A DNA stretch of 64,000 nucleotides from an uncultured Acidobacteriota bacterium (GCA_963739435.1 CAVUAN010000005.1:168128-232127), one strand, 5' to 3'; positions 36,047-62,526 are shown, counted from the stretch's first letter. Numbers and translations are program-made. Notes: generated by a model from the sequence alone, not told the origin.

Positions 36047-37867
36047 GTGAGTCGGAAAACAACCCGCTGGATCAGTCTCGCCCTGGGTCTGGTGTTCCTC
36101 GCAACGGTCCCCCTGCTCGCGGCCGCAGCAGCACCTCCCCTGACAAACTGGACCTCCCCGGCGACATACACCCCGCAATCGACTCGAAAGGGTCTTCATA
36201 CGGCCGGGGACCTCACGGGCCCACTGCCATTCGTTCCCATCGCACCGTGCCGGCAGTACAACACGACCAGTCCCGTGGCGCCGCTCCTGCAAGCCACGAA
36301 CCGGGCCGTGCCGCTGACGGGCGCGCCCTGCGGGATCCCGACAGATGCGGTCGCGGTTGCGGTCAACATCACGATTTTCAACATCATCGGCGCGGCTGGA
36401 AACGGCGTCTTCAAGGTCGACACCGTGTCGCCGCCACTGAACGCCTGGATCAACTATCCGCCGACGGAGGCGCAAAGGGGTAACGCCGGAGTCGTGTCCT
36501 TGAATGCCAGCGGCCAGATCATCGTTCAGGTGGCCCAGGGCGCCGGCCAGATCGACTTCGTCGTCGACACCAACGGCTACTACCCAAATACGGACTCCAC
36601 ACATCTCCTGAACGTTGGTGAAATGTTCCAGATAGCCTCGAACAACGCCGGCACCCCTGTGATCCTCGGTGTCAACACCAACACCAGCGCCAACAGCACC
36701 GGCGTCCGCGGCCTTGCCCTCAGCACGACCGGTGGCGGAATTGGGGTGTGGGGTCAGCACTTCGGCTCGGGCTGGGGCGTGTACGGCTTTTCGCCGAGCG
36801 GCATCGGGGCCTTCGGCCAATCCAATACCGGTCTTGGCGTTGAGGGACTGAGCACGGACTACAACGGTGTCTGGGCCCAAGCCACGAACTGGGATGCTCT
36901 GGCCGCGTTCGGCGGCCGGGATGGCGGATATCTCCAGGGCGCTCGCCACGGTGTCATCGGCGTCTCGACGGCGACAACCGGCATCGTCTACGGCGTCGAC
37001 GGGTCCTCAGCCAGTCCTGCCAACGGCTCCGCGGGAGTCCGAGGCTTCGATAGCAGCGGATACAGCCCGGCCGGGGCGCCAAACGGGCAGGCTGGAGTCT
37101 TTGGAACCAGTCAAACGACATTCGGTGTGGTGGGTACATCGCGTTACGCGGGTGTTTACGGGCAGCTCATGAACGGAGCGGATGCCCTGATCGCTTATGG
37201 CCTCCTCGGGACGACCTTTGGCACGGCCGCTGACACCACGACGGGTCCCTGGGGAGTCTTCTCCGCCGGTAACTTCGGAGCGACAGGCACGAAGCACTTC
37301 GTCGAGCCGCATCCGAGCGATCCCAAGAAGGTGATCCTGTACTCCTCGATTGAAGGTCGAACAGTCGATAACTTCTTCCGCGGTACGGCTCGTTTCGTCA
37401 ATCATGAAGCTGTCATCGAGGTGCCGGAAGACTTCCGCATCGTTACGGACGAGGACGGCCTGACGGTGCAGCTGACTCCGGTGGGAGGCTTTGCTTCAAT
37501 GTACATCGAGAGCCAGGACCTCAACCGGATCGTCGTGAAGTCCAACAAGGACGTGCAGTTCCACTACCTGATCCAGGGCATACGCCGGGCCTACAAGGAC
37601 TTCCTGCCAGTCCAGACAGGTTACGAGTTCATGCCGACCTCGCCGGAAGACCGGTTGCCCTTGTATCTGACAGAGGAATCCAGGCGGCGCCTGATCTCCA
37701 ACGGCACCTACAACGCCGACGGGACTGTCAATATGACGACGGCCGAGCGGGTGGGTTGGGCAAAGATTTGGGCCGACAAGGCTCAGGCAGCGGCTGAGGC
37801 GGCCAAGGCGGCCCAGGCGCGCGCGCAAGAGATGTCCGTCTCCAGGGTTTCTTCGCAACAGCAGTAG
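36047..37867 (+). CDS. Secreted fibre-like protein, paralogue A1: signal peptide, N-terminal two-Cys module, Gly-rich repeats, conserved C-terminal domain
   Basis: - GTG start after AGGAGG.
- Signal peptide MSRKTTRWISLALGLVFLATVPLLAAAAA.
- Module ..APCRQYNT..GAPCGIP..VVDTNGYY.
- Degenerate G-[VI]-x-G-x-S repeats.
- C-terminal region GTKHFVEPHPSDPKKVILYSSIEGRTVDNFFRG...NGTYNADGTVNM. Confidence 0.8.
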   Translation: MSRKTTRWISLALGLVFLATVPLLAAAAAPPLTNWTSPATYTPQSTRKGLHTAGDLTGPLPFVPIAPCRQYNTTSPVAPLLQATNRAVPLTGAPCGIPTDAVAVAVNITIFNIIGAAGNGVFKVDTVSPPLNAWINYPPTEAQRGNAGVVSLNASGQIIVQVAQGAGQIDFVVDTNGYYPNTDSTHLLNVGEMFQIASNNAGTPVILGVNTNTSANSTGVRGLALSTTGGGIGVWGQHFGSGWGVYGFSPSGIGAFGQSNTGLGVEGLSTDYNGVWAQATNWDALAAFGGRDGGYLQGARHGVIGVSTATTGIVYGVDGSSASPANGSAGVRGFDSSGYSPAGAPNGQAGVFGTSQTTFGVVGTSRYAGVYGQLMNGADALIAYGLLGTTFGTAADTTTGPWGVFSAGNFGATGTKHFVEPHPSDPKKVILYSSIEGRTVDNFFRGTARFVNHEAVIEVPEDFRIVTDEDGLTVQLTPVGGFASMYIESQDLNRIVVKSNKDVQFHYLIQGIRRAYKDFLPVQTGYEFMPTSPEDRLPLYLTEESRRRLISNGTYNADGTVNMTTAERVGWAKIWADKAQAAAEAAKAAQARAQEMSVSRVSSQQQ

Positions 37868-37889
37868 ATTCAGACCTGCGTGCGGATTC

Positions 37890-37927
37890 GAGGGCCGCGG
37901 CGCTAGGCCGCGGCCCTCTTCATTTTT
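37890..37927 (+). terminator. Rho-independent terminator after A1 (lies between convergent genes)
   Basis: A 12-bp perfect stem (GAGGGCCGCGGC / GCCGCGGCCCTC, 5-nt loop) is followed by TTCATTTTT. Confidence 0.7.
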
Positions 37928-40088
37928 GCGGCGGGTCCCCGCGCCGGTTCTTTCTCTTTTCCGCCTGCTCCTGCAGCGCTCGCTCGAGATTGTTCCGGGC
38001 CATCGTCAACCCCGGTTCCAGCCGGAGAGCCTCTCGGTACTCCTCGATGGCCGCTTCCCGGTGCCCCCCCAGGAAGAACGCGTAGCCGAGGTTGTTGTGA
38101 GCCAGGGCGAAACCCGGATTGATGCTCAGGGCCAACCGATACTCGGCCGCGGCCTCGTCGACCCGAGCTTCCTGGAGCAGGAGGCTTCCCATGTCGTTGT
38201 GTGCCTCCGCAAACGCCGGAAAGAGCTCCAGCGCCTGCCGGAGGTGATCGAGCGCATCGACTTTCTTCCCCCGACCCTGAAGCGCGAGGCTCGCGTTCCG
38301 ATGGGCCGCGGCCAGAAATCTGCGCATCTCCTCGGCGGCGGGATCGGCACTTCTTCGATCGAGAGCACGCGCGCCGTCTAAGAGATGGCGGTAGTCTGCC
38401 TCCTGCGGGGCCCGGAGGACGGTACGCTCGAGTTGATCAATGGCTGCTGCCGTCTGTCCATCCACCAGGAGGGCGATCCCGAGCCTTGCCCTGGTCTCTG
38501 CCCAATCGGGAGCCAGACGGGTGGTCGTCTGGTAGAGCCGGACTGATTCTGAGATTTCGCCTTGTTGGAACCGCGTCCTTGCGAGGTTGTTCATGGCGAC
38601 CGGATCTCCCGGCGTCAGGCGAAGGGATTCGGTGAAATGCTGCGCCGCTTCGTCGAACCGGCCCAGTAGAAAAAGAGACCGGCCGAGGTTGGTGTGAACC
38701 TCGTTGGCCTCCGGACGGAGGCGCAAGGCCTCGAGGAGATGGGGCAGAGCGTCCGCAGGCCTGCCCAGCTCGTTGTAGTAGTCGCCCAGATTGGTCCGCA
38801 CGATCGGATTGCCCTTCGTGACCTCGAGGGCGTGGAGGTAAAGGGTCTCGCTGTTCTGCCAGATGCGCGCCTGCCTGGCCGCAAACAACGCCAGAGCAGC
38901 CAGGGCAGCCGCGGCGGCCATCCGGAACGCCAGGTCTCTGTGCCGCCAGGCCAACGGGACCTCCGCAACGCCCCAGGTGATCGCGATGAACAGGCCGACA
39001 AAGGGAAGATAGGTGTAGCGATCGGCAAGTGCCTGCAGGCCCACTTGAACGAGGCCGATGACAGGAAGAAGAGTGATGACGAACCAGAACCATCCGACGA
39101 AAAGATATGGGGCGCTTCGCCGGAAGACGACGGCCGCCGCCGAAACGGCGGCGAGCAGAAGCGCGGCGCCGATGACTTTCCAGGCGGGCAGCGAAGTCCC
39201 CGGATGCGGGTAGAAGACAGCCAGGTTGGTGGGCCAGAAGAGCATGCAGATGTAGCGGACATACGCGACGAGCGCGTTCCCGACGCGAGTCCACAAAGGA
39301 AACTTTTCGAAAGTGCCGAGGGCTCCCCCGGCCCGCTGAGCCACCACGGTCACAACCGAGGAGGCCGCAGCCATCAGGAAGAGAGGAACTTTCTCGAGGA
39401 CTCGTGGCGCCGCGCCACCGCCGTATCTCGAAAGAGGCCAGTCATCGAGAAGAAGCAGCACCACCGGAAGCGAGACCAGCATTGGTTTCGACATGAGTCC
39501 GGCTGCGAACAGGCCCAACACAATCAGGTAGCGGCCGACACCGCGCCGGCGGGCCCAGGAACCATAAGCCCACATCGTCGCGAACCAGAAGACGGCGCTG
39601 AGCAGATCCTTCCTCTCCGCAACCCAGGCGACCGACTCCACGTGCGCCGGATGGACCGCAAAGAGGGCAGCGACAAAGGCACTGCGCCAGGAGTCGGTCG
39701 TCAGGCTGTGAAGCGCGCCGAAGAGAAGAAGCGTAGCGACGACATGCAGCAACAGACTGGTTGCATGATGGCCCGCAGGGTTCAATCCGAAGGCCGAGAC
39801 GTCCGCCATGTGCGAGAGCCAGGTCAGGGGATGCCAATTGGCTGCGTACACCGTCGTGAAGGCCCACCGGAGGCCCGCCCATGTCAACCCTGCGCCGACG
39901 GGGTCGTTTCGCGTCACATAAGAGTTGTCGTCAAAGTTGGTGAAGTCGCTTCGCAGGACCGGCCACAAGGTCGCTACAGAAAGAGAAACGAGAAACAGAA
40001 CAGGGAGGAGTAGTCGGACCGCCTTCGAACCGCTCGGAGAGCCAGCCCGGTCGCGATCAAGCCGATTTGCTGCACGGCGACGCGACAA
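37920..40088 (-). CDS. TMTC-like GT-C-fold glycosyltransferase with C-terminal TPR array
   Basis: The N-terminal half is polytopic and contains the family-typical ..SDFTNFDDNSYVTRNDPV.. and ..ANWHPLTWLSHM.. The C-terminal ~330 aa are tandem TPR repeats. The start is TTG at 40088. Confidence 0.75.
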   Translation of the reverse strand: MSRRRAANRLDRDRAGSPSGSKAVRLLLPVLFLVSLSVATLWPVLRSDFTNFDDNSYVTRNDPVGAGLTWAGLRWAFTTVYAANWHPLTWLSHMADVSAFGLNPAGHHATSLLLHVVATLLLFGALHSLTTDSWRSAFVAALFAVHPAHVESVAWVAERKDLLSAVFWFATMWAYGSWARRRGVGRYLIVLGLFAAGLMSKPMLVSLPVVLLLLDDWPLSRYGGGAAPRVLEKVPLFLMAAASSVVTVVAQRAGGALGTFEKFPLWTRVGNALVAYVRYICMLFWPTNLAVFYPHPGTSLPAWKVIGAALLLAAVSAAAVVFRRSAPYLFVGWFWFVITLLPVIGLVQVGLQALADRYTYLPFVGLFIAITWGVAEVPLAWRHRDLAFRMAAAAALAALALFAARQARIWQNSETLYLHALEVTKGNPIVRTNLGDYYNELGRPADALPHLLEALRLRPEANEVHTNLGRSLFLLGRFDEAAQHFTESLRLTPGDPVAMNNLARTRFQQGEISESVRLYQTTTRLAPDWAETRARLGIALLVDGQTAAAIDQLERTVLRAPQEADYRHLLDGARALDRRSADPAAEEMRRFLAAAHRNASLALQGRGKKVDALDHLRQALELFPAFAEAHNDMGSLLLQEARVDEAAAEYRLALSINPGFALAHNNLGYAFFLGGHREAAIEEYREALRLEPGLTMARNNLERALQEQAEKRKNRRGDPPQK

Positions 40089-40142
40089 GATCCGTCGAGT
40101 TTAACCGAGCCCGCCCCGCTCGCCGAACTGGCCTCGTCGGGG

Positions 40143-40171
40143 TTGCGCTGCTGGCGCGCCGGGGTTAGTTT
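40143..40171 (+). promoter_or_regulatory. Candidate sigma70-type promoter for paralogue A2
   Basis: TTGCGC, a 17-nt spacer, then TAGTTT. The conserved leader begins about 9 nt downstream. Confidence 0.35.
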
Positions 40172-40179
40172 TGTCCAGC

Positions 40180-40337
40180 GGGAGTCCAACTCAATTGTCT
40201 TGAGCCGTCCCAGCGGTTCTGGTTTGGCCTTTCGACGGGAACCTCGGGGACGCCTCTCGACCGAAAGGAGGCGACCTGACACGAGACACGAGCATTGCGA
40301 CGTCGAAACCTGCTTTCATCAAGAATAGGAGGCTTTC
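40180..40337 (+). promoter_or_regulatory. Conserved leader of about 160 nt, copy 2
   Basis: See copy 1. This copy has the same palindrome, the same CGCCTC/GAGGCG hairpin and the same GGAGGC Shine-Dalgarno sequence. Confidence 0.5.
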
Positions 40338-41990
40338 GTGAGTCGGAAAACAACCCGATGGATCAGTCTCGCCCTGGGTCTGGCGTTCCTCGCAACGGTC
40401 CCTCTGCTCGCCGGCGCAGGAGAACCTCCCCTGACAAACTGGACCTCCCCGGCGAAATACACCCTCCCCCCATCGGCTCGAAAGGGGCTTCATACGGCAG
40501 GGGACATCGCCGGCCCGGAGCCATTCATTCCGATCGCACCGTGCCGGCAGTACAACTCGCTTAGCGCGACGCCGCTCCTGCAAGCCACGAACCGGGCCGT
40601 GACGCTGACGGGTGCGCCCTGCGGGATCCCGGCGACTGCGAAAGCGGTTGCGGTCAACATTACGATTTTCAACATCAACGGCGCGGCCGGAAACGGCGTT
40701 CTCAAGGTGGACACGGTGTCGCCGCCGGTGACCGCCTGGATCAACTACCCGCCGACGGAGCAACAAAGGGGCAACGCCGGAGTCGTGTCCTTGAATGTCA
40801 GCGGCCAGATCTGGGTCCAGGTCGCCCAGGGCGCCGGCCAGATCGACTTCGTCGTCGACACGAATGGTTACTTCGGCAGCAGCCCCGCCACCAGCCAGGA
40901 CTGGTTCGAGGTCGACAACAACAGCTCTACCTTTACGATCTTCGGAAATAACTCCTCGACGACCTGCAGTCAAGATTGCGGTGTCGTGGGGCAGACGGCC
41001 AGCGGGTGGGCTGTTTACGGACTCAGCTTCAACGACGTCGGCGTTTACGGATCCAGTTTCGGGAGCGGCATCGGAGTGGCCGGAGTCTGGGGGTCCAGCA
41101 CCGATGCCATCGGCACCTACGGGCACAGCACCAACACCAACGGCATGTGGGCCGACAGCACGACCTTCGACGCTTTGGCCGCGTTCGGCGGCCGCGACGG
41201 GACCTTCAGCCAGGGCGCCCGGAATGGCGTCGTCGGAGTGTCCACCGGCACCACATTGCCGGTCTATGGTGCGATTGGTCAAGGGATGAGCTCTAGCTCC
41301 AGCGCCGCCGGAATCTTCGGCACGACCAATCAAGCTGTCGCCAACGCGGGATACTTCACCAATACCGGCGCCGGGACCATCACATACATCGGTACTCAAA
41401 TCCTCGGAACCAATTACGACATCTTCGGGAGCGGTAGGATCCAGGGCAATTCCCTCAACATCATCGGCGCGCCCAAGAACTTCGTCGCGCCTCACCCTCT
41501 GGACCCCTCCAAAGAGATCGTGTACGCCTCCGTCGAGGCCCCGACCGTGGACGTCTACTTCCGCGGCACCGGGACGCTCTCCAACGGTTACGCGCACATC
41601 GAGGTGCCCGACCATTTCCGCTTCACGGCTCGTGAAGGGACCTACATGACCACGCTGACCCCGGTCGGGCGGCCGATCGGCTTGAGCGTCGAGTCGGAAG
41701 GGCCGGAGGGGATCGTCGTGCGCGGGAGCGGGAACGCCAGCTTTCACTACGTCGTGTACGCCGAGCGCGCCGAGATCGTCGGATACGAGCCGGTCCAGAA
41801 GAACGTGACCTTCACACCCGAGGCCATGGAAAAGATTCAGTTGCTGAACGCGTTGCCGGAGTCGACGAAAGCGCTCCTCGTCAAGAACGGGACCCTCAAC
41901 CCCGACGGCTCCTACAACCTGGAGACGGCTGGCGCCATGGGATGGACCGTCCCGAAGCCGATCGCCACCGACGCAGCGACTCGAAAGTAG
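40338..41990 (+). CDS. Secreted fibre-like protein, paralogue A2
   Basis: Same architecture as A1, with a more diverged C-terminal domain (APKNFVAPHPLDPSKEIVYASVEAPTVDVYFRG...). Confidence 0.8.
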   Translation: MSRKTTRWISLALGLAFLATVPLLAGAGEPPLTNWTSPAKYTLPPSARKGLHTAGDIAGPEPFIPIAPCRQYNSLSATPLLQATNRAVTLTGAPCGIPATAKAVAVNITIFNINGAAGNGVLKVDTVSPPVTAWINYPPTEQQRGNAGVVSLNVSGQIWVQVAQGAGQIDFVVDTNGYFGSSPATSQDWFEVDNNSSTFTIFGNNSSTTCSQDCGVVGQTASGWAVYGLSFNDVGVYGSSFGSGIGVAGVWGSSTDAIGTYGHSTNTNGMWADSTTFDALAAFGGRDGTFSQGARNGVVGVSTGTTLPVYGAIGQGMSSSSSAAGIFGTTNQAVANAGYFTNTGAGTITYIGTQILGTNYDIFGSGRIQGNSLNIIGAPKNFVAPHPLDPSKEIVYASVEAPTVDVYFRGTGTLSNGYAHIEVPDHFRFTAREGTYMTTLTPVGRPIGLSVESEGPEGIVVRGSGNASFHYVVYAERAEIVGYEPVQKNVTFTPEAMEKIQLLNALPESTKALLVKNGTLNPDGSYNLETAGAMGWTVPKPIATDAATRK

Positions 41991-42015
41991 TTTCGTCAAG
42001 CATCGAAGATTCCAT

Positions 42016-42041
42016 CTGCCGCGGCGATGTTGCCGCGGCAG
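42016..42041 (+). terminator. Hairpin (possible attenuating terminator) between A2 and A3
   Basis: A 10-bp stem (CTGCCGCGGC / GCCGCGGCAG, 6-nt loop) is followed by a T-poor tail (AGTCCTTTCTT). Confidence 0.45.
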
Positions 42042-42072
42042 AGTCCTTTCTTATCCCGAGAGGAGGCCTTTC

Positions 42073-43758
42073 GTGACCCGGAAGACAACCCGATCGATTC
42101 ATCTCGGTCTTTGTCTCGCGCTCCTCGCAACAGTGCCCCTACTCGCAGCGGACATACCGCTGAAGAACTGGACCGCTCCGCCGACGTACAGCCCGTCATC
42201 GACCCTAAAGGGTCTCCACACGGCAAGCGACATCTCGGGTCCGGTCCCATACATTCCGACCTCTCCGTGCCGGCAATACAGCTCGCTCGGCACGCCACTT
42301 CCACAAGGGATAAACCGGACCGTGCTCCTGACGGGAGCGCCCTGCGGAATTCCGGCGGGCGCCGTGGCAGTCTCCGTCAATATTACCGTCTTCAACATCA
42401 CGGGCGCAGCCGGAAACGGCGTCTTCAAGGTCGACACCGTGTCGCCGCCGTTGAGCGCATGGATCAACTACCCGCCGACGGAGGCGCAACGGGGCAACGC
42501 CGGGGTCGTGGCTCTGACCATCGGAGGCCAGATCATCGTTCAGGTCGCCCAGGGAGCCGGCCAGGTCGACTTCGTCGTGGACACGAATGGTTATTACTCC
42601 AACACACCCGCCTCGGCGAACAACTACTTCCTCGTGTCGAACAACAGCGACTCGTGGACGATCCAGGGCATCAACAGTTCCTCGAGCTGCATCCAACAGT
42701 GCGGCATCGTTGGGCTGACGAGCAGCGGCTACGCTCTCTATGGAGTCAGTGCCAACTCGGACGGCGTTCACGGCGTCAGTGGCGGGAGCGGCCTCGGTTC
42801 GGCGGGAGTCTGGGGGACCAGCACCGATGCCATCGGCACCTACGGGCACAGCACCAACACCAACGGAATGTGGGCCGAGAGCACGACCTTCGACGCATTG
42901 GCTGCATTCGGCGGCCGCGACGGGACCTTCAGCCAGGGCGCGCGGTATGGCGTTGTCGGAGTCACCTCCGGCAGCTGCTTCGGTTGCGCCGGCGTGAAAG
43001 GCATCGCCTACGATGGAGAAGCACCAGGTAACACCAGCCAGGGCGCGTCCGGGGTGTTCGGTACTTCAACCTTGAACATTGGCGTTCTCGGCACCGCACA
43101 GAGCCTCGGTGAAGGTGTTGCCGGAATCAGTGTGGACGGCTCCGGCGCAATGAAGTCCGCTGGCTATCTCGGATGGTCCAACTCCATCGGTATTGAGTTC
43201 TTCAATGGCCTCGCAGGAAGCGGCACGAAATCCTTCATCGAGCCTCATCCAACCGACGCTTCGAAATTGATCAAGTACGTCTCGATCGAAGGCCCCGAGG
43301 CCGGCGTCTATTTCCGGGGCCGCGGCCGGGCACAAGACGGGCTGGCGACAATCGACGTGCCGGAGAGCTTTCGGATGGTGGCGGCGGGAGAGGGCCTGAG
43401 CATCCAGGTGACGCCGATCGGCGAACCGGCCAACGTGGCCGTTGTCCAGATCGGCCTGGACCGCATCGTCGTCAAGGCCACACAGGACGTCGAGTTCTTC
43501 TACACGGTCAACGGCGTCCGCAAGGCCTACCCCGATTGGAACCCCATTCAGGACAACCTCAAGGAGTTCGTTCCGGAGGGCCCGGGCTCCCGCCTCCCCG
43601 CCTACCTCAGCGCAAACGAGAGGCAGCGCCTGATCGACAACGGCACCTATCACGCCGACGGCACGGTCAACATGGAGACGGCCCGACGGGTCGGCTGGGA
43701 TCAGCTCTGGCAGGCGAAAGCCGAGGAAGCGGCGCGGCGGCGCGAACCGCCTCGGTAG
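42073..43758 (+). CDS. Secreted fibre-like protein, paralogue A3
   Basis: GTG start after GAGGAGGC. Same architecture as A1. C-terminal region GTKSFIEPHPTDASKLIKYVSIEGPEAGVYFRG...NGTYHADGTVNM. Confidence 0.8.
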   Translation: MTRKTTRSIHLGLCLALLATVPLLAADIPLKNWTAPPTYSPSSTLKGLHTASDISGPVPYIPTSPCRQYSSLGTPLPQGINRTVLLTGAPCGIPAGAVAVSVNITVFNITGAAGNGVFKVDTVSPPLSAWINYPPTEAQRGNAGVVALTIGGQIIVQVAQGAGQVDFVVDTNGYYSNTPASANNYFLVSNNSDSWTIQGINSSSSCIQQCGIVGLTSSGYALYGVSANSDGVHGVSGGSGLGSAGVWGTSTDAIGTYGHSTNTNGMWAESTTFDALAAFGGRDGTFSQGARYGVVGVTSGSCFGCAGVKGIAYDGEAPGNTSQGASGVFGTSTLNIGVLGTAQSLGEGVAGISVDGSGAMKSAGYLGWSNSIGIEFFNGLAGSGTKSFIEPHPTDASKLIKYVSIEGPEAGVYFRGRGRAQDGLATIDVPESFRMVAAGEGLSIQVTPIGEPANVAVVQIGLDRIVVKATQDVEFFYTVNGVRKAYPDWNPIQDNLKEFVPEGPGSRLPAYLSANERQRLIDNGTYHADGTVNMETARRVGWDQLWQAKAEEAARRREPPR

Positions 43759-43818
43759 TCGGCGGCAGATTTCTCATCATGACGGAGAGTGCTCTTCCAT
43801 CAGGAACAGGAGGCCATC

Positions 43819-45588: not shown

Positions 45589-45632
45589 ATCGCGCGGCGG
45601 CACGAACCGCCGGGTAGTCGGCGGAGAGGATG

Positions 45633-49096: not shown

Positions 49097-49550
49097 AGCC
49101 GGTCGCGTCGATGACGAGATGGGCCGTCGGGCCCACGCCCATCGCCGGGTACACCGAAACCTGCAGCGACGGGTCGGCCGCAAGGGGCGCAATCGCTCCG
49201 TTGGCGATCGCCGGCTCATTCGGGTCGAAGTTGATCGTCGCCACCAGCGGCATGGTCGTGTTGTACGGCCAGACCCGCAGGTTGCCGCCGCTCGTCGGAC
49301 CGACGATGACGACGTTCAACACGGCCGCCTGGGCCGTCGCCGGGATCCCGCAGGTGCCTCCCGTGATCGGGAACGACCGCACCACGTTTCCCGCCAGAAT
49401 CGGGCCGCCCGTCGGGCCGACCGGCCCGCGCGTGTCGACCAGCCGGCATGGCGTGATCGAGTAGAACTGGAAGGGCCCGCCCGCCGGCGCCGACGAGGCC
49501 AGCAGAATGACCACCACCGACAGAAGAATCGACCGGAGTACGCCTCTCAT
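49086..49550 (-). CDS. Stand-alone secreted two-Cys module protein (B3)
   Basis: The 154-aa product is a signal peptide plus the module only (GPFQFYSITPCRLVDTRGPVGPTGGP...TCGIP...HLVIDATGYFQ*). Confidence 0.8.
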   Translation of the reverse strand: MRGVLRSILLSVVVILLASSAPAGGPFQFYSITPCRLVDTRGPVGPTGGPILAGNVVRSFPITGGTCGIPATAQAAVLNVVIVGPTSGGNLRVWPYNTTMPLVATINFDPNEPAIANGAIAPLAADPSLQVSVYPAMGVGPTAHLVIDATGYFQ

Positions 49551-49558
49551 GGAACCTC

Positions 49559-51437: not shown

Positions 51438-53586
51438 TGGTAATACCCGTTGACGTCGACGACGACATGGACCGTGCCCGAACCCTGCCCGCAGTGAATG
51501 ACGAGATCTGTGTTGGCACCCAGGAGCGTGTTCACATTGTTGCTGCGCGTTTGACCCGACTTGTAGTTGATCGTCGCGGCCGCCGGCAGCGGCGCGCCGA
51601 CGGGATAGAGCGTCAGGAAGCTCGGGCCCGTCGTCGGCTGCGTCACGGCCACGTTCAGGGACACGCCCTTGGCTCCCGGCGGAATCCCGCACTGGCTTCG
51701 CGAAGACGAACGTCCGGTCCGCTCCCGCCGCGAGCGCGGGCCCGCCATAGCGGCCCGTTGGCGTTACGGCGTGTCGATCACCCGGCACGGCGTCACCGTG
51801 TAATAACGCCGACGTTGCTGTTGTAGGTGAAGGCGCTGGGGAGCGTCGCCGCCTGCGCGTCCGGGTTGGTCGCCGTCACGCCGACGGTTCCAGCGCTGCC
51901 AGCGGGAGCTGTCGCCTGAGCGTCGTCGAATTGACGAAGGTGCTCGGAACCGACGCGGCTCCGAAGGCAACCGTCGCGCCGGACTGGAAATTGGTACCCG
52001 CGACTGTAACGACCGTGCCCCCGGCCGTGGGCCCGAAGGTCGGCGTCACGCCGCCGATCGTCGGCGGCGGAACAACGATCGAGTAGGTGTAGGCAATCGG
52101 CAGCGTACCGGTCTGGAAGTCCGGGTTCATCACGAGCGACGTCCACCAGCCCCGCCGCGTGCCACGAGTCGTCGCGGTAATGCTGCGGCGCCGACCGTCC
52201 CACGCCACGTTCACGCCTGCCGCGACATCGCCGATCGTGACCGTGGCGCCCGCAGACGAAGTTGCTTCCCGCTGATCGTGACCGGTGTCCCGCCGGCGAT
52301 CAGGCCGGAGGGCGGGCTCATCGTGGAGATCGACGGTCCCGGCCCCGTGCCGAGGCAGGACGCCGACCGAATTCTCCACGAAGTTTCGGATCCGGGTCAG
52401 GACCGCCGGCTGGTTTCCCCGGGTACGCCCAGGTAGAAGTTCGAGAGCGGCATAACCCCCGATGAGGTGGCAGTAGCTCATGATCGTGCCGAGCTCGCGT
52501 GGCACGCTCGTGGGGCCGCTGTAGCCGGAGCCGCCTTCACCCGCGTAACACATGTCGACCGGAGGGATATAACAGTGCGTGTGCGGTGAGCTGAAGTTGT
52601 GCCCGATCTCGTGCGTGACGACGAGAATGTGCGAGTCGAGACCCGGGTTCGTGGTGGAGAAGGATCCGTTCAGGCTGCCGCTCACGCCGTAGCCCAGGCC
52701 TCCGCAGATCTGGCTGAGGTATGCGACACCGCCCCCGAGGCCGCGCATGCTGAGCATGTGCGCCGTGCTCCGCGGGACGGCGGTACGGTTCGTCTGCCAG
52801 TAGGAGAGAACTCGCTCAGCGCGCCGGAGGAGTCTCCGGCCGTCCAGGGGTCGGCGGCCGTCGTCCAGAGGGCAGAGGTCGTGACCCTGGAGGACGACTT
52901 CGACGTCGCGCTGATAGATCGCACTGGCCGCGGCGAAGAGATCGGACACATACTGCGTTGCGCCGGAGACCGAACCGAAGTTGGCGTAAAACTCGTAGTC
53001 GGTCTCGAGGGCCACGCTCGCGTAGTAGACGGTGTTGGAAAGCGGTCGAGGCTGAGCGAGGGTGCGCAGCACCTTGGTCGTCGACGGAGGCTCGGGAAGC
53101 GATTCGGTCCCGCATCTCCACGAGCGCATGCTCTCCGGGACTTCGAGATCGGAAGTCAGGGTGTGCAAGCGCGGTCCATGCGTCGGCCCGCGATAGGCGT
53201 CCGTGTAGGGGGCGAGGACGATCAGCCGGCCCGCCCGTGGAGATCATGCCGCGCGGGCTTTTCTCGCCCGCGAGAAGGACAACGCGACTGGGGATCGCCC
53301 GCGACCTGCCCCGACGAAATACGGATCGGACGTGAGAGGTGAGGTCGTGTCCCCGGAGTCACGAGTGGATCACCAGCTTCGCGTCGGCTGTGAAGGGCTC
53401 AAAGCGCGTCAGGTCCAGCGTGATCTCGGTCCCGTCCTCCGAGTAGCACGTTCCGGCTCTGGAGCTTCGCGCCGGACGGAAGCGGGCTCGAAAGGGCGGT
53501 GAGGAGACCGGCATCCGGTGCGTGCAGGAAGGCCCCGCCGCGCAAGCGAGCAGGAGCCCGGCCAGCAGGATCGGTCGCAACTTCAC
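51434..53586 (-). pseudogene. Reprolysin-like zinc metalloprotease + two IPT/TIG domains + C-terminal two-Cys module (B5), many reading-frame disruptions; N-terminal boundary uncertain
   Basis: The zinc site is HEIGHNFSSPHTH. IPT/TIG segments are PSISTMSPPSGLIAGGTPVTISG and PTIGGVTPTFGPTAGGTVVTVAGTNF. The tail YYTVTPCRVIDT...CGIPPGAKGVSLNVAVTQPTTGPSF...VVVDVNGYYQ* is scattered over three frames. The lipoprotein-like ORF 53359..53586 (MKLRPILLAGLLLACAAG..) may be its true N-terminus. Confidence 0.55.
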
Positions 53587-53707: not shown

Positions 53708-55390
53708 CTATTGGAGGTACCCGTTGACGTCTATGACCAGGTGGGCCGTTCCGGCCCCCTGGCCGCAGAACACCGTGGCCTCCCCGAGAGGCCCCAGTGG
53801 CACGATCGCGTTGTTGGCGCGGATCCTCCCCGCGTTGTAATTGACCGTCGAAGCGAGCGGCCGCGGCGAGCCGCCCGCCGTCAGGGTCAGGAAGCCGGGG
53901 CCGTTGGTCGCGTTGACGACCACGATATTGGCCGACACCCACTTCGCGCCCAATGGAATCCCGCACTGGCCCGCGAACACGAACGTCCGAGTTGCTCCGG
54001 CCGAAAGCGGCGGACCGCCGTAGAGACCCTCCGCTCCGCGCGTGTCCAGCACCCGGCACGGAGGCACCGTGAAAAACTGCAGCGCCGAGGGCGTGGGCGT
54101 CGGGGGCGGGCTCCCGGGGTGCGTGAGCCGGTAGAACCCGCCGCCGCCGGTGCCCAGGTAGATCTCCCCCACGGAATCTTCGCCGAACGTCTGCAATCCG
54201 GGCAGAGTCGGCGTCAGCAGTTGCCCGTTGCCCCAGAGATTGCCGGAGCATTCGTCGCCGTAGAGATACGTGCCGTAGAGGTTCAGGTCCTGCGATCCCC
54301 GATACACGTATCCCCCGATGATCGCGCACCCGAAGCTGTGGTCGTACTCGTAGACGGGCAGCGTGTAGCTCGGGTCGCCACAGATCGGCGGAACGGGGCT
54401 GCACCCGTTGCTGCCGTCCGCGCCGCAGATGCTTCCCTCCATCACCTTCCAGCCGTAGTTCTGCCCGCCGGCGCTCGACTGCGGTTGAAAATCCACCTCT
54501 TCCCGCGCGCTCTGTCCGACGTCGCCGATCCAGAAGTCGCCCGTCGCGCGGTCAAACGAGAAGCGAAAGGGATTCCGCAGGCCCTTCGCCCAGAAAAGAT
54601 TGCGCGGAAAGGGCGAGCCCGCGAAGGGATTGGACGCCGGAATCCCGTAGAAAGGCGACACGCCGACGTTCTGATCGACGTCGATCCGAAGCATCTTGCC
54701 GAGCGCAACGGCGTCGTTCTGCGCGTTGCAGGGCGGATCGTTGCCCGAGCCGCCGTCGCCGGTGCCGATGTAGAGGTAGCCGTCGGGGCCGAACTGAAGC
54801 TGGCCGCCGTTGTGGTTCGCGTTGATCGGGTGCGGGATCGTCAGAAGAATCGCCCGCGTCGTCGGGTCGGCCCGGTTGGCGTCCGAGGCCATGCGCTGGT
54901 AGCGGACGATCTCGATATCTCCGGCCGTGTTGGTGGTGTAGATGAAGAGATAGCCGTTGGCCGCGTACTGCGGGTGGAAGGCGACCGACAGCAGCCCGCG
55001 CTCTCCGCAGCACGAGATGAGAGTCGACACATCGAGAAACGGCGTGGAGAGAATGGCCCCGCCCGAGTAGATCCGGATCTGCCCGGACTGGATCGTCAGG
55101 AAGAGGCGGGAGTCCTTGGCGTTCGTGATCGAGGTGATCGAGCCGAGCCCGGAGGTCAGCAACTGGAGCCCTATAGAGGGTGGCGCGGCCGGCGAAGCCT
55201 GGATGGCCCCGGCGCGGCCGGAACGAACCAGCAGCGCGGCAAGCGCCAGGGCGAGGGTAAGAGCGAGGGCGAAGGCGCCCCGTCGCCTGAACCGACGCCG
55301 CATACCTTTCGAAGCGTCGTCCCGGAGGGTTTCCGCCAGTCCCGGCCATCCGAGCCTCGCGGCAATCATCCGGGCCCAATCGAGGTCCAT
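53708..55390 (-). CDS. PQQ-dependent sugar dehydrogenase-like beta-propeller (sGDH/sorbosone dehydrogenase family) with C-terminal two-Cys module (B6)
   Basis: Family-like segments are ..ERGLLSVAFHPQYAANGYLFIYTT.., HNGGQLQFGPDGYLYIGTGDGG and GLRNPFRFSFDRATGDFWIGDVGQ. The C-terminus is FFTVPPCRVLDTR...LVIDVNGYLQ*. The ATG at 55390 has a GGGAGG Shine-Dalgarno sequence. An alternative ATG at 55303 lies just before the hydrophobic segment. Confidence 0.8.
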   Translation of the reverse strand: MDLDWARMIAARLGWPGLAETLRDDASKGMRRRFRRRGAFALALTLALALAALLVRSGRAGAIQASPAAPPSIGLQLLTSGLGSITSITNAKDSRLFLTIQSGQIRIYSGGAILSTPFLDVSTLISCCGERGLLSVAFHPQYAANGYLFIYTTNTAGDIEIVRYQRMASDANRADPTTRAILLTIPHPINANHNGGQLQFGPDGYLYIGTGDGGSGNDPPCNAQNDAVALGKMLRIDVDQNVGVSPFYGIPASNPFAGSPFPRNLFWAKGLRNPFRFSFDRATGDFWIGDVGQSAREEVDFQPQSSAGGQNYGWKVMEGSICGADGSNGCSPVPPICGDPSYTLPVYEYDHSFGCAIIGGYVYRGSQDLNLYGTYLYGDECSGNLWGNGQLLTPTLPGLQTFGEDSVGEIYLGTGGGGFYRLTHPGSPPPTPTPSALQFFTVPPCRVLDTRGAEGLYGGPPLSAGATRTFVFAGQCGIPLGAKWVSANIVVVNATNGPGFLTLTAGGSPRPLASTVNYNAGRIRANNAIVPLGPLGEATVFCGQGAGTAHLVIDVNGYLQ

Positions 55391-55519
55391 GGGCCCTCCC
55401 GGTGAGCCTCAATTATACAAGCCGAGACGATCTTCCTCAGGGGGGTTAAGGAAACACTAGGGGGCAGGGCGGAGGCCCCGTGGGCCGCCAGCCTGCCCCC
55501 CAAGAACGAAGACGGCGAT

Positions 55520-55990
55520 CTACTGGAAGTAGCCGGTCGCGTCGATGACGAGATGGGCCGTCGGGCCCACGCCCATCGCCGGGTACACCGAGACCTGCAG
55601 CGACGGGTCGTTCGCCAGAGGAGCAATCGCTCCGTTGGCGATCGCCGGCTCATTCGGGTCGAAGTTGATCGTCGCCACCAGCGGCATGGTCGTGTTGTAC
55701 GGCCAGACCCGCAGGTTGCCGCCGCTCGTCGGACCGACGATGACGACGTTCAACACCGCCGCCTGGGCCGTCGTCGGGATCCCGCAGGTGCCTCCCGTGA
55801 TCGGGAACGACCGCACCACGTTTCCCGCCAGGATCGGCCCGCCCGTCGGGCCGACCGGCCCGCGCGTGTCGACCAGCCGGCACGGCGTGATCGAGTAGAA
55901 CTGGAAGGGGCCGGCGCCGTTCGTCGAGCTGGAGACGAGGAGCGCGACCACTCCGATTGCCAGAACACCGAGGGACGATTGCTTCTTCAC
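55520..55990 (-). CDS. Stand-alone secreted two-Cys module protein (B7), near-duplicate of B3
   Basis: The GTG start at 55990 follows GGAGG, 9 nt after the B8 stop. The mature part differs from B3 at only 2 residues. The signal peptide is unrelated to that of B3. Confidence 0.8.
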   Translation of the reverse strand: MKKQSSLGVLAIGVVALLVSSSTNGAGPFQFYSITPCRLVDTRGPVGPTGGPILAGNVVRSFPITGGTCGIPTTAQAAVLNVVIVGPTSGGNLRVWPYNTTMPLVATINFDPNEPAIANGAIAPLANDPSLQVSVYPAMGVGPTAHLVIDATGYFQ

Positions 55991-55999
55991 GCCGACCTC

Positions 56000-58900
56000 C
56001 TACTCAAAGTAGCCGTTGACGTCGAGAACGAGGTCCATGGTCCCCGCTCCCTGGTTGCATTTTACCGTGATTGTGCCGCCCGGCCCGAGCCTGACAAGCG
56101 AACCCTTCGACCGGGTTTGGCCCGTATTGTAGTTGATGGTGGCCGTGATCCCAGGGGTGGACCCGCCCGCGACGATCTGCAGGTTGCCGCCGCTCGTCTC
56201 CCCGGTGGCGGCCACGTTGACAACGATGGCCTGGGCCGTCGAGGGGACGCCGCAATTGCCGGACACGATGAAGGTCCGCGAGGCGCCCGCTGCCAGGGAG
56301 GGCGTGTCCGTCGTCCGGGTATCGATCAAGCGGCAGGGGGTGACGGTGAAGAAGTTGCCGCAGCTGGCATTGATGGCCACGTTCGCCGTGCCGCTCGCGA
56401 AACAACCCGCCGCGTTCGACACCCCTACGCCGAGGACAACGGGGCCGGCAGACGGGTCGGCGCTGAATGTGATCGAAGCGAACCCGGCTCCCGAAGTGAT
56501 GACGCCGTTTGTAATGGTCCAGACGTAGCTTGCGCCCGGGCCGGCGTCGGGCACCGAGGCCACGTTCGTCGTGGACTCGGCGCAGACGACGGAGGGAGCT
56601 GTGATCACCGCCGAGGGCGCCGGGTTGACGGTCACGTTCGTCGTCGCCGGGTCGCTCGAGCAGGTGCCGATCGTGGCCACGACCGTGTATGTGCCCGAGG
56701 CCGCCGCCGTCGCCGAAGGAATCGTCGGGTTCTGAGCGGACGAAGTGAACCCGTTGGGGCCCGTCCAGGAGTAGGTCGCCCCGCCAATCGTCGAGGCGGT
56801 GAGGTTGAGAGTCGAGCCGGCGCAGATCGGCCCGTTGTTGCCCGCCGTGGGCGCCGCCGGGCGGCCGCCGTCGTTGTTGTCGAGCAGACCCGAAATCGTC
56901 ATGTTGTAGCTTGCGCAGCCCGTCGTTGCCACTTCATGGATGACCGTCGTGAAGGACGCTCCGGCCGGGACATTGAACGACCAGGTCGCCGTTCCTGCGA
57001 AGCTCGAGCCGGGATCCGCCAGGTAGTTCGTCTGGATGTTCGCCGGATCGAAGGGGCCGAGATAAGTCACGTAGAAGATGTTCGTTCCGCAACCCGACGT
57101 GACCTGCGTGGTCACGCAAACGGGCGTGCCGAGGGTATTCGTGTACGTGTAGGCGTCGTACCGCCGCAGAACGGAGTCAAGATTGGCCGGCGTGGCGTGG
57201 GTCGCCGAGCAGGTCGTGCTGACGCCATTTCGGGACAGACGGCCCGTCTGCGTGGGGTCGCCCGCCGCGATGCTTCCATTGACCGAGATCGGGAAGCCGC
57301 ACGTCGGAAGGCTGAACAGCAACGGTGTCGATCCGGCCGAGGACGTCACGGTGAGCGTCAGGTCGATGTTCGTGCCGCAAACGAAGCCTGGGGACGTCGC
57401 GATCTGGAAAGGCGTCGTGTTGCCAGTCGCCGATCCCGCGGAGACATTCGGATAGCCGGAATTGGGCTGAACGACCGTGACGCCGGGTGTCGTGGTTGAG
57501 AGAACTCCGGAGATCGCGGTCCCGACGGCGCAACCGACGTTGTTCAAGGGGATATTGACCTTCACGCACTCGTTTCTGTTGATGACGCCATTGTTGTTGC
57601 CGCCGGAGTCATCGATGGAAGCCGTTCCGAGCGAGAACGCAGCCGTGCCCGCCAGGACGAAGTTCCTCGTCGTCACGGCCCCGTTGTTGATCGTTGCGCC
57701 GACGGAGGCGGAAGGCGTGCAGCCGGGCCGCAGCGGAGCCGATGCTGTCGCGTTGACGGCGCCCGGCGGGAGAACGATCGTGTAGATGCCCAAAGAATTC
57801 GTGGCGCCCGAGAAACCATTGTCCAGGTTGACGAGCGCTCCCGGAATCGGCACGCCGAGTCCGTCCTTCACAGTGCCGGTCAGAGTTCCCTTCGCGGGCG
57901 GGGAGCACTCCGCGGGCCCGAAGCGGAAAGCGCCGATGCGGGTATTCCAGTTGAAGCTGCCATTGGCCGGCTGATACTGGTTCGTGTACCAGAATGTGCA
58001 GCCGTCGCGGGGGTCGACAGTCATCGCCGAATAGTCGCCCCAGCGGTTGGCCGTTCCGATCTGCACACCGCCGCCGGTCTTCATCACGGTCTCTGTTCCG
58101 AGCGTGCCCAGCGGATCGCTCGAGAGACGGCCGACGACGTCGATCTCGGGGAGAACGGCGGCGGAGGACTTGCTGTACCCGAGCGCTATGTTGCCGCTGT
58201 TGTCCATCGCAACGCTTCCCATCCACCGGTGATTTGCGTCCGGGGCGTAGGTGCCCTGCTGGAAGACCGTCTCAACGCCGCCAGGCAGGCGAATCTCGTA
58301 CCAGCGGGGAGCCGCGTTGTTGAGCGCCTGGGGAGACGCAAAGGGGTTCGTGTTGACGGTGTCGGAAAGCACGATCGACTCGAAGGCCCCGAAGTTGCGG
58401 TAGGCCACCCGGTTCATCAGGCGGCCGGAAATCGCGTCGACGTTAGTTCCCCCCGGGGGCTGCGGAATGCAGCCGCGATTGAAGTCGCACATGTCCGTGT
58501 TGTACACGGTAATGCCCGGCATATCGGTCGGACCCGTCAGCGTGGTCGCCGGTATCGCGCCCCAGGTGGTCGTCGCCGTCCAGACGTGGAGAGTCGCTGA
58601 TCCAAGCGCCGTCGTGCCGTCCCATTCGAAGGAGCCGGGCGCGAAGATGCGCTCCGGCGTGGTCGCGGGCGGCGGTGTGAGGCCGTCGAGATCAGCAGGA
58701 AGTGCGCCGAAGTATGTGAACGTCAGGTCCATGGGAGTCGGGACCACGCGCGCAGGCAAGCCGGCGAGCATCGCCGGGCGCTCGAACGCAGCGAGCCCCT
58801 GGAAGAGGAAGGCCGTTCCCGCTCCGTTGAAGACGTGGTACGTGGAGTAGTAGGCGTCCGGCCAGACACCGTGGTGGGGATAGTCCCAGAATTGATTGGT

Positions 58901-59884
58901 TCCGAGAGGAAAAGCGTAGAGATAGTAAGCGCCGAGCGGATCACCCGTAACCGAGACCGCGGTGCACTGATAGGAGTCCAGGCTCGCCCCGACTTGCACG
59001 GCGAACTGGGTCAGGATCCAGCGGTCCGCCAGGTTGTCGTAGACGACGAGCGGATCGCCGTCATTGAAGACCACACAGGGCGACGACGGGCCGAGTGCCG
59101 TGAAGAGCGAGTTGCCGGCCGAGGGCCCGTAGAGCAGGGTCCCGCTCTTATCGAAGATCGCGAAGTTCACGTTGATCCACTGGACGTAGTGGTTGGGTCC
59201 GACCCGGCCGTTGTTGTCGGGCGGCGCGAAACCATTTGCCGGAAGGCCGTCGAAATTCACACCGGTCGGCGTCAGCAGCGAGGGTCCCGGAATCTGCTGG
59301 ATCGCTCCGTCCGGCCTGGTCGGGGCGTTCCCAGTCGCCCGGTTGTGGCGGGTGGGGAGGTCCCGGTTCTCGACTTCGGTGTTGGGGTCCGCCTCGACGG
59401 GCCTGGCCGGGATACTGCGCAGCTCCGGTGAAAGCACGGGGACGATGGGGTCGCTCACCTTGACGCGCGAGAGCTCCGCGAGCTCTGCCCTCGAGTATTC
59501 CCTGTGATTCTCTTCGCCGCTGCCTTCGCCGCCGGCCCCGACGCGGCCCGCCATCGCTGCCGCCGCCGGGCCGTCGGGCGAGGAACTGGCGGGACGTGTC
59601 GCACGAGCGGGCTTGACCGTTCTGGCTTTGGAAGGCGTTGTCGCTGTCGTGCTCTGAGGCCGATGAGCTGCCGCGACGGCAGCCGCGATCGCCTTGGCTT
59701 TCGCTTCCTTGTCGGGCGCTGCCACCGGCTCGGGAGCCGGGGCGATCTCGACGACAGATGGAGGTGAAACCGAGCTGGCCAGCTTCGGCCCGCTCGCCCG
59801 ATTCATCGTGAGGATGCCGGCGCCGAGCGCCACACCTGCGACCAGGACGATCGCTGTTGCTAAAATCCGGCGAGTCCCTTTCAT
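56000..59884 (-). CDS. Large (1294 aa) multidomain surface protein with C-terminal two-Cys module (B8)
   Basis: - I trimmed run-through ORF 56000..60910 to the ATG at 59884 (MKGTRRILATAIVLVAGVALGAGIL signal/anchor).
- An Ala/Pro-rich spacer follows.
- A large unassigned globular region follows (..RWGDYSAMTVDPRDGCTFWYTNQY..).
- A CarboxypepD_reg-like segment follows (GTLTGTVKDGLGVPIPGALVNL).
- P-domain-like and Ig-like (ATYSWTGPNGFTSSAQNPTI) segments follow.
- The C-terminus is FFTVTPCRLIDTR...LVLDVNGYFE*. Confidence 0.8.
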   Translation of the reverse strand: MKGTRRILATAIVLVAGVALGAGILTMNRASGPKLASSVSPPSVVEIAPAPEPVAAPDKEAKAKAIAAAVAAAHRPQSTTATTPSKARTVKPARATRPASSSPDGPAAAAMAGRVGAGGEGSGEENHREYSRAELAELSRVKVSDPIVPVLSPELRSIPARPVEADPNTEVENRDLPTRHNRATGNAPTRPDGAIQQIPGPSLLTPTGVNFDGLPANGFAPPDNNGRVGPNHYVQWINVNFAIFDKSGTLLYGPSAGNSLFTALGPSSPCVVFNDGDPLVVYDNLADRWILTQFAVQVGASLDSYQCTAVSVTGDPLGAYYLYAFPLGTNQFWDYPHHGVWPDAYYSTYHVFNGAGTAFLFQGLAAFERPAMLAGLPARVVPTPMDLTFTYFGALPADLDGLTPPPATTPERIFAPGSFEWDGTTALGSATLHVWTATTTWGAIPATTLTGPTDMPGITVYNTDMCDFNRGCIPQPPGGTNVDAISGRLMNRVAYRNFGAFESIVLSDTVNTNPFASPQALNNAAPRWYEIRLPGGVETVFQQGTYAPDANHRWMGSVAMDNSGNIALGYSKSSAAVLPEIDVVGRLSSDPLGTLGTETVMKTGGGVQIGTANRWGDYSAMTVDPRDGCTFWYTNQYQPANGSFNWNTRIGAFRFGPAECSPPAKGTLTGTVKDGLGVPIPGALVNLDNGFSGATNSLGIYTIVLPPGAVNATASAPLRPGCTPSASVGATINNGAVTTRNFVLAGTAAFSLGTASIDDSGGNNNGVINRNECVKVNIPLNNVGCAVGTAISGVLSTTTPGVTVVQPNSGYPNVSAGSATGNTTPFQIATSPGFVCGTNIDLTLTVTSSAGSTPLLFSLPTCGFPISVNGSIAAGDPTQTGRLSRNGVSTTCSATHATPANLDSVLRRYDAYTYTNTLGTPVCVTTQVTSGCGTNIFYVTYLGPFDPANIQTNYLADPGSSFAGTATWSFNVPAGASFTTVIHEVATTGCASYNMTISGLLDNNDGGRPAAPTAGNNGPICAGSTLNLTASTIGGATYSWTGPNGFTSSAQNPTIPSATAAASGTYTVVATIGTCSSDPATTNVTVNPAPSAVITAPSVVCAESTTNVASVPDAGPGASYVWTITNGVITSGAGFASITFSADPSAGPVVLGVGVSNAAGCFASGTANVAINASCGNFFTVTPCRLIDTRTTDTPSLAAGASRTFIVSGNCGVPSTAQAIVVNVAATGETSGGNLQIVAGGSTPGITATINYNTGQTRSKGSLVRLGPGGTITVKCNQGAGTMDLVLDVNGYFE

Positions 59885-62513: not shown

Positions 62514-62526
62514 CTCTTCCTTCCCT

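Follow-up and report, generated by a model that had tools for sequence, protein, structure and literature searches.

The subject of this study is a cluster of genes that share a small protein module, found in a 64,000-nucleotide (nt) stretch of DNA from an uncultured Acidobacteriota bacterium. The whole of this stretch is referred to below as the window, and the cluster under study occupies positions 36047-59884 of it. The Acidobacteriota are generally regarded as abundant, poorly cultivated soil bacteria. An initial annotation of the window had reported twelve copies of the module within 24 kb, at the ends of eight consecutive minus-strand genes and just after the signal peptide in four plus-strand paralogues. 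The genes that carry it are listed here, with the coordinates and E-values of the modules.

36047-37867, plus strand: fibre-like secreted paralogue 1, with a signal peptide, an N-terminal module (36221-36583, E = 2.6e-9), Gly/Ser-rich repeats and a phage-like C-terminal domain
40338-41990, plus strand: fibre-like paralogue 2 (module 40515-40874, E = 3.1e-10)
42073-43758, plus strand: fibre-like paralogue 3 (module 42241-42597, E = 9.6e-8)
43819-45588, plus strand: fibre-like paralogue 4 (module 43990-44349, E = 8.6e-8); the longest open reading frame (ORF) runs from a GTG at 43789
45633-47402, minus strand: secreted NosD-like right-handed beta-helix protein (Pfam NosD/Beta_helix) with a C-terminal module (45636-46010, E = 7.9e-32)
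47459-49096, minus strand: secreted beta-helix protein (DUF1565, choice-of-anchor Q) with a C-terminal module (47462-47836, E = 2.9e-34); start uncertain
49086-49550, minus strand: stand-alone module protein of 154 residues (signal peptide and module), with 163 homologues, none of them named
49559-51437, minus strand: M10-like zinc metalloprotease (HELGH) with an IPT/TIG domain and a C-terminal module (49562-49936); frame-disrupted, Pfam Peptidase_M10 and TIG in a three-frame reading
51434-53586, minus strand: reprolysin-like metalloprotease with a TIG domain and a C-terminal module (51437-51814); many small indels, its counterpart on the related contig L001 matching Reprolysin_4/5 and TIG
53708-55390, minus strand: secreted glucose/sorbosone-dehydrogenase-type beta-propeller (Pfam GSDH, 2.4e-33) with a C-terminal module (53711-54085, E = 1.1e-29)
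55520-55990, minus strand: second stand-alone module protein, of 156 residues
56000-59884, minus strand: large adhesin-like protein of 1294 residues, with CarboxypepD_reg, Ig and PKD domains and a C-terminal module (56003-56362, E = 1.6e-20)

The module is a real domain, and its recurrence here is non-random and far beyond chance. A six-frame scan for the motifs P[CA]R..D[TS] and DxNGY located PCR..D[TS] and DxNGY pairs at all twelve of the places named earlier, and the twelve segments could be aligned over ~120-125 residues with pairwise identities of 27-96%. The two stand-alone modules are 96% identical to each other, and the four plus-strand modules share 73-82% identity among themselves and 27-36% with the other window copies. 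A profile hidden Markov model (HMM) was built from three-copy proteins of other organisms only, with no window sequence, and applied to the 332 window ORFs of at least 90 residues. It matched exactly twelve of them, the eight minus-strand modules at E-values of 3e-34 to 7e-16 and the four plus-strand modules at 3e-10 to 1e-7, and returned no further window ORF at E ≤ 10. Because this foreign-only profile picks out exactly the twelve ORFs, the observation of twelve copies is real; motif scan, alignment and independent HMM all agree.

The architecture reported for these genes was largely borne out. All eight minus-strand modules finish G-Y-[FYL]-[QE], with the stop codon one residue after G-Y-[FYL] as described, and the diverged copies of all four plus-strand paralogues lie at residues ~57-179, ~30 residues past the signal peptide. 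Both module cysteines are invariant across the window copies. A signal peptide or signal anchor stands at the N-terminus of every carrier in the window, so the carriers are not cytoplasmic. That the module is attached to unrelated heads and also occurs alone is likewise correct, the window heads being beta-helix, protease, propeller and Ig/PKD domains, and two proteins consisting of signal peptide plus module; heads across the wider family comprise beta-helix, GSDH propeller, M10/S8 proteases, GH16, GDSL lipase, plastocyanin-like, PKD, TIG and FG-GAP domains. The copy density, said to be unusual, is the highest of the 82 loci we sampled, although clusters of 6-9 copies occur elsewhere. The four plus-strand paralogues, in which the module is followed by Gly/Ser-rich repeats and then by C-terminal ~200 residues matching two PHROGs of no known function and several phage proteins, look like fibres. 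The C-terminal ~215 residues of the first (36047-37867) match phrog_17490/28536 and phage proteins that include an Arthrobacter phage minor tail protein, and this paralogue has no Pfam match. Neither the fibre mid-region nor the head of the 1294-residue protein has a Pfam match even at E = 0.1.

The module was found in all eight of the minus-strand genes, but two of these are frame-broken and one lacks a canonical start at the position given. Neither 49559-51437 nor 51434-53586, which are tandem paralogous metalloprotease-TIG-module genes, is an intact ORF; several frame changes are needed in each, and the module at 51437-51814 is interrupted by an in-frame stop. Comparison of 49559-53586 with positions 6340-9992 of L001, a metagenome contig of ~90% identity, revealed ~30 small indels, mostly of 1-2 nt and most of them outside homopolymer runs, and across 6.2 kb the window and L001 differ by 105 gap positions. 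The L001 orthologue of 49559-51437 is intact and encodes 618 residues (HELGH metalloprotease, TIG and module), and the L001 copy of the second protease gene is likewise garbled, falling out of frame in mid-gene. The broken frames may be decaying duplicates or pseudogenes, or may be long-read consensus errors. For 47459-49096, the codon at 49096, where the signal peptide of the beta-helix protein begins, is the non-canonical ATT; the closest canonical starts in frame (TTG at 49183 and 49192, ATG at 49219) lie inside the 3' end of the stand-alone gene.

An AlphaFold2 (AF2) model of the stand-alone protein 49086-49550, calculated with 62 homologues, has a pLDDT of 91 and shows a signal helix followed by an eight-strand beta-sandwich; on this model the module is a jelly-roll beta-sandwich of ~120 residues. 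Foldseek searches gave no close solved relative of the single module. The best match, itself weak, was the tip at the C-terminal end of Bd2133, a Bdellovibrio fibre protein (E = 1e-3; TMq 0.48 and TMt 0.58, against a threshold of TM > 0.5 on both chains; rmsd 4.9 Å, 14% identity), and other weak matches were to Ena fibres, a trimeric phage cement protein, BclA, ExsFA, viral jelly-rolls and several carbohydrate-binding modules (CBMs), with tail-fibre and collagen-like heads matched in BFVD. The best matches thus include a number of trimeric jelly-rolls, namely the Bd2133 tip, the phage cement protein, BclA, ExsFA and the phage tail-fibre/collagen-like heads. Of the 1317 module instances in which the two cysteines were examined, 1246 have the pair and 52 have neither, and the 19 with a single cysteine are mostly truncated sequences or one-column alignment shifts. 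Because the pair is present or absent jointly, the idea of a disulfide is supported, and the disulfide-stabilised beta-sandwich originally suggested is in keeping with both the model and the cysteine counts. The pair appears to brace the domain in Acidobacteriota. Its invariance holds within the window but not beyond it, both cysteines being missing from the Streptomyces copies described below, which indicates from sequence that the pair is dispensable and not universal.

Searches of Pfam-A 2025, NCBIfam r20 and PHROGs v4 with the ten intact window proteins, stand-alone homologues and three-copy relatives gave no match to the module, all matches falling in the heads. A sequence search of the Protein Data Bank (PDB) returned no match to a single sequence, and the best profile match (E = 0.37, against a threshold of E < 0.01) was spurious; a literature search found no description of the domain. 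RefSeq labels carriers 'hypothetical' or 'PKD domain-containing', and the initial description of the module as one without a family name therefore stands. The family is nonetheless large. A 125-position profile run against 1.84 billion proteins, counted as representatives of 50%-identity clusters, matched 35,433 clusters at E ≤ 1e-3 and 25,751 at E ≤ 1e-10, and a single three-copy query brought up over 5,705 proteins at E ≤ 1e-20. Acidobacteriota account for the best 80 genome loci with one exception, a metagenome-assembled genome of the Acidithiobacillales. Viral contigs yielded one relative among 2.9 million, and the idea of a phage domain was rejected on that count. The module also occurs on 18 Streptomyces plasmids. 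Actinobacterial amidase-like carriers had been named in the initial annotation; the module is indeed present in Streptomyces, but the carriers inspected there are PKD proteins and the link to amidases was dropped. On two of the plasmids (L082, 3125-4765, and L083, 2484-3920) the PKD proteins end in three tandem modules without either cysteine, the motifs reading HAPTRLLDTR and GGIP, and the third copy has diverged far beyond the other two (E about 1e-5, against 1e-26 or lower).

Copy number per protein follows a marked pattern. The 153 best-scoring representatives, a ranking by score that cannot reveal one- or two-copy proteins, carry three copies (137 proteins), six (13), nine (2) or five (1), and copy numbers of four, seven and eight do not occur among them. 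ORFs in the locus sample (82 loci: 80 genome loci, L001 and the window) have one copy in 117 cases and three in 37; the three ORFs with two copies are on a frameshifted contig. Linkers are ~8 residues long inside a triplet and ~100 residues between triplets. The final copy ends 0-2 residues from the stop codon in 130 of 154 ORFs, and 18 of the 154 extend at least 50 residues past the module. A natural three-copy protein, P0201 (395 residues, essentially three modules), was modelled by AF2 with a pLDDT of 94.8 and a pTM of 0.91; its three modules are predicted to form one compact body and not beads on a string. Foldseek comparison of this model with the PDB gave no global match (TMq < 0.2), which means only that no solved single chain in the library resembles it.

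The two arrangements are divided between lineages. The 29 loci with three-copy ORFs belong to the Terriglobia (Terriglobales, Bryobacterales and Acidoferrales), with one unclassified exception, and the single-copy loci are mainly from Thermoanaerobaculia, Vicinamibacteria, Holophagae and unclassified Acidobacteriota, with a few exceptions. In the Thermoanaerobaculia, the kind to which the window belongs, the single-copy chains are accompanied by a conserved stand-alone copy. The Streptomyces carriers have three copies at the C-terminus. Three tandem copies predicted to act as one pseudo-trimeric unit occur in relatives of the window's proteins, not in those proteins themselves. The simplest reading is that the working unit consists of three modules, supplied either by one three-copy chain or by three single-copy chains. 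Since the three-copy relatives are predicted to fold into a compact pseudo-trimer, the single-copy proteins of the window probably trimerise.

Each of the two stand-alone genes begins 8-9 nt past the point where a module-bearing gene stops (56000 to 55990 and 49559 to 49550). The upstream stop TAG, which lies 8 nt before the ATG of 49086-49550 and 9 nt before the GTG of 55520-55990, overlaps in both cases a Shine-Dalgarno sequence, AGGAGGT. On the minus strand both junctions (55990-56002 and 49550-49561) read TAGGAGGT, then 4-5 nt, then the start codon, the upstream stop being part of the Shine-Dalgarno sequence. Judged by this arrangement, translation of the stand-alone gene is coupled to the 3' end of the module-bearing gene upstream. 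The same pair is present in L001 (twice), L002, L003 (twice), L004, L005 (twice), L006, L007, L010, L016, L018, L085, L087 (twice) and L088, giving about 20 carrier/stand-alone pairs on at least 14 contigs; independent gene calls put the gap between the two genes at 10, 31, 54 and 10 nt. The upstream partners are often proteases (M10 with TIG, S8 or InhA-like), and others are PA plus DUF11 proteins, FG-GAP or Ig/TIG carriers, and orthologues of the 1294-residue protein, one of which (L085, 57% identity) has a stand-alone gene 10 nt downstream. The stand-alone proteins form a conserved family of their own, with 45-99% identity to one another and 34-46% to the fused modules of the window, and are soluble secreted proteins without a lipobox. 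The most economical idea is that the stand-alone copy is a partner in mixed trimers.

The remaining features of the window that bear on the module cluster are the following.

7620-35763, minus strand: glycan biosynthesis operon of 28 kb, identified by Pfam scans, with a MurJ-like flippase, five GT1/GT4 glycosyltransferases (GTs), methyltransferases, a GDP-mannose 4,6-dehydratase, epimerases, an Asn synthase and an intein-bearing UDP-glucose dehydrogenase
37920-40088, minus strand: protein with a multi-pass membrane N-terminus and TPR repeats, amid the fibre paralogues (matches to TPR families only)

The module cluster abuts glycan genes in the window, in L001 and in L086, where MurJ, methyltransferase and GT genes again flank a stand-alone module gene. 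In L002 (4800-5918), L061 (6070-7101) and L018 (2112-3299) a true orthologue of the window's GDP-mannose 4,6-dehydratase is the direct neighbour of a module cluster (E-values of 1e-105 to 1e-177), and in L002 and L061 the dehydratase gene is placed between an amidohydrolase gene, orthologous to window 61197-62654, and a GSDH-module gene. The enrichment of glycan genes near module clusters is suggestive only; from gene neighbourhood, the 7620-35763 operon could be the source of a ligand for the module. The island itself also recurs. L005 and L085 contain propeller-module genes, a protease-module gene with a stand-alone gene behind it, the membrane-TPR protein, and a fibre paralogue whose module is N-terminal. 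The N-terminal 416 residues of the membrane-TPR protein (its membrane domain) have no Pfam match even at E = 0.1, and orthologues of this domain beside module clusters in L001 and L005 (E = 5e-152) make it a conserved island member. On the 2.9-Mb Acidobacteriota contig L085, a Kelch beta-propeller protein and a fibre paralogue with 41% identity to 36047-37867 (19-2010 and 8513-10399, both minus strand) each have the module at the N-terminus. With two such carriers in L085, an N-terminal module is a recurrent architecture and no oddity of the window.

The explanation we favour, and to which we give about an even chance, is that of a jelly-roll module, non-catalytic and braced by a disulfide, which assembles into trimers or pseudo-trimers, oligomerises secreted proteins and probably tethers them to a glycan. 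Three-fold assembly would be the working unit: tandem relatives would fold as a compact pseudo-trimer, and the single-copy window proteins would trimerise through the module, either as homotrimers or with co-translated stand-alone copies. The assembled module would both oligomerise and bind. It would display or tether fibre-like proteins as well as secreted enzymes and proteases, most probably on an envelope or matrix glycan of the cell itself, which the neighbouring operon could make. Such a scheme would follow the logic of three-fold SLH/CWB2 anchors or of trimeric adhesive-fibre tips. SLH and CWB2 proteins carry their motifs as three tandem copies that assemble, or are expected to assemble, into a pseudo-trimer anchoring diverse exoproteins, proteases included, and the Clostridium difficile CWB2 gene cluster adjoins an anchoring-polymer locus (PMC4973711). 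The analogy is functional, both systems placing three tandem copies N- or C-terminally on unrelated exoprotein heads, and the Pfam SLH and CWB2 profiles gave no match to the module. SLH and CWB2 have a fold unrelated to that of the module and are established in monoderm walls, whereas in the module family single-copy and stand-alone forms dominate and polysaccharide binding is putative.

Several points weigh against this explanation. Trimerisation of the single-copy proteins is inferred from copy-number statistics, one AF2 pTM and a weak fold likeness (TM 0.3-0.58, E about 1e-3), and the monomeric modules CBM35, CBM16 and CBM4 appear in the same Foldseek list as the trimeric proteins. The glycan tether is weakly suggested by a fold resembling those of adhesin tips and CBMs, by adjacent glycan genes, by the dehydratase orthologues and by the analogy with SLH/CWB2; GT4 genes are common enough for chance proximity, the three dehydratase loci (L002, L018 and L061) are from related lineages and are not independent, and SLH and CWB2 differ from the module in both sequence and fold. 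The Acidobacteriota are also diderm, and no route for export to the surface was seen within the window, though display on a diderm cell would need one. A more specific proposal, which we consider doubtful, is hetero-oligomeric docking: the stand-alone module of the Thermoanaerobaculia type would co-assemble with the coupled proteases and adhesins (for example as one carrier plus two fillers), the mixed trimers would bind a self-made surface or matrix glycan, and Terriglobia and Streptomyces would have fused the three copies into one chain. This would amount to a diderm beta-sandwich counterpart of SLH/CWB2 display, with some flavour of cohesin-dockerin pairing.

Two further readings of the module seem to us improbable but deserve to be weighed in full. 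In one of them it is a monomeric CBM-like jelly-roll that targets secreted enzymes to polysaccharide, with the tandem triplets giving avidity only. CBM35, CBM16, CBM4 and the Xyn30D CBM were matched by Foldseek at TM 0.3-0.46, the first three being likewise beta-sandwich accessories on secreted enzymes, some of the module's heads act on glycans (beta-helix/NosD, GH16 and GSDH), and the module is a modular accessory beside a glycan operon. Avidity, however, explains neither the missing 2, 4, 5, 7 and 8 copies nor the compact three-copy model with its pTM of 0.91, both atypical of CBMs; most heads are not glycoside hydrolases but proteases, propellers or Ig-like domains, and no Pfam CBM family matches. 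The other reading, of similar standing, sees in the module a domain of adhesins and exoenzymes that trimerises as a tip or stability element and either attaches to foreign targets (prey, plant or fungal polymers, mineral surfaces) or simply stabilises its carrier, with no tether to the cell's own envelope. Here the best fold match, a prey-recognition fibre tip, fits, as do the fibre-like plus-strand paralogues with their phage tail-like C-termini and the soluble, secreted, lipobox-free stand-alone copies. The C-terminal tip of Bd2133 packs into a trimer (PMC10769870). Like the module, this mosaic adhesive trimer fibre tip (PDB 8OND/8OK3) is a ~120-residue beta-sandwich at the extreme C-terminus of a secreted protein; it differs in its low identity and weak TM-score, and in following a trimeric beta-helix fibre where the module follows enzymes, propellers and Ig-like heads. 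Stand-alone or triplicated copies of the Bd2133 tip are not known. Binding to foreign targets also leaves unexplained the repeated glycan-gene neighbourhood and the strict coupling of stand-alone copies to some carriers, although both are weak as counter-evidence.

The initial annotation had described the module as an anchoring, sorting or docking element rather than a catalytic one. This interpretation is partly supported: the accessory position on diverse unrelated heads agrees with a non-catalytic part, but sorting is very unlikely. A C-terminal sorting or secretion signal, similar to the CTD (C-terminal domain) of the T9SS (type IX secretion system) and read by a dedicated export or attachment machine, would account for a ~120-residue beta-sandwich on unrelated heads, for a last copy that so often ends within two residues of the stop codon, and for the conserved protein-final G-Y-F-Q motif. 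The T9SS domain is likewise a small C-terminal beta-sandwich on diverse secreted proteins. The module, however, is also found N-terminally, internally, in tandem and alone; four window copies are N-terminal, 18 of the 154 ORFs run on well past it, stand-alone copies carry nothing to sort, and single chains hold one or more triplets. No T9SS CTD or sorting-signal model in NCBIfam or Pfam matched, and secretion-machine genes were not seen within the 64-kb window. T9SS is reported as specific to the Fibrobacterota-Chlorobiota-Bacteroidota (FCB) superphylum (PMC12398890); the module occurs outside that group, in Acidobacteriota and in the monoderm Streptomyces. Least probable of all, in our estimation, is that the stand-alone protein regulates or inhibits the adjacent secreted proteases, with the shared module as a protease-interaction domain. 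The tight coupling and the frequency of M10, S8 and InhA-like upstream partners would suit such a role, but adhesin-like partners without a protease domain (window 56000-59884, L085, L088 and L011) do not, nor does the presence of the module on many non-protease heads that lack a stand-alone partner.

The fold class of the favoured explanation and its logic, a C-terminal trimeric jelly-roll or three-fold anchoring module, are already known. TNF/C1q-type jelly-roll trimers (the BclA head, collagen-like heads and TNF-like lectins) also combine a C-terminal jelly-roll with a trimeric working unit. The module reaches a TM of only about 0.3-0.4 to BclA and to viral collagen-like heads, the Pfam C1q and TNF profiles did not match it, and the cysteine pair and the motifs PCR..DTR, CGIP and D.NGYF are specific to its family. 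Absent from the libraries, the PDB and the literature searched are the family itself, its motifs, the alternation of one and three copies across classes and the coupled stand-alone partner. The one-or-three copy rule, the compact three-copy model, the coupled stand-alone pair, the two frameshifted genes and the size of the family had not featured in the initial annotation. At least 35,000 protein clusters carry the module without a curated name or a solved structure detectable by sequence, and a large part of the enzymes and adhesins that Acidobacteriota secrete are among the carriers. If three-fold assembly and tethering are true, they would explain how the exoproteome of these bacteria is organised, make many 'hypothetical' proteins annotatable and yield a compact tag for trimerisation or display. 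The copy rule, together with the coupled stand-alone partner, offers an experimental handle that is direct and cheap.

Some minor features of the window complete the description. The ORF that holds 56000-59884 remains open up to 60910, another ~340 codons upstream. In this extension (59885-60910, minus strand) a stretch starting MSIRKRKDGVYVIRYYADG resembles by eye the N-terminus of a tyrosine integrase; the extension has no Pfam match. Possibly it is a relic at the island's edge. The flanks of the window hold ordinary housekeeping genes, as follows.

619-4552 and 62527-63879, minus strand: molybdopterin-dependent dehydrogenase subunits (MoCoBD, FAD_binding_5), a Cys/Met pyridoxal-phosphate (PLP) enzyme, an amidohydrolase and an amino-acid permease

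Within the glycan operon, the UDP-glucose/GDP-mannose dehydrogenase gene at 24731-28498 (minus strand) is split by an intein (Intein_splicing and LAGLIDADG_3, residues ~628-1089). Its true start is probably later than that of the ORF, since ~350 unexplained residues precede the dehydrogenase N-domain.

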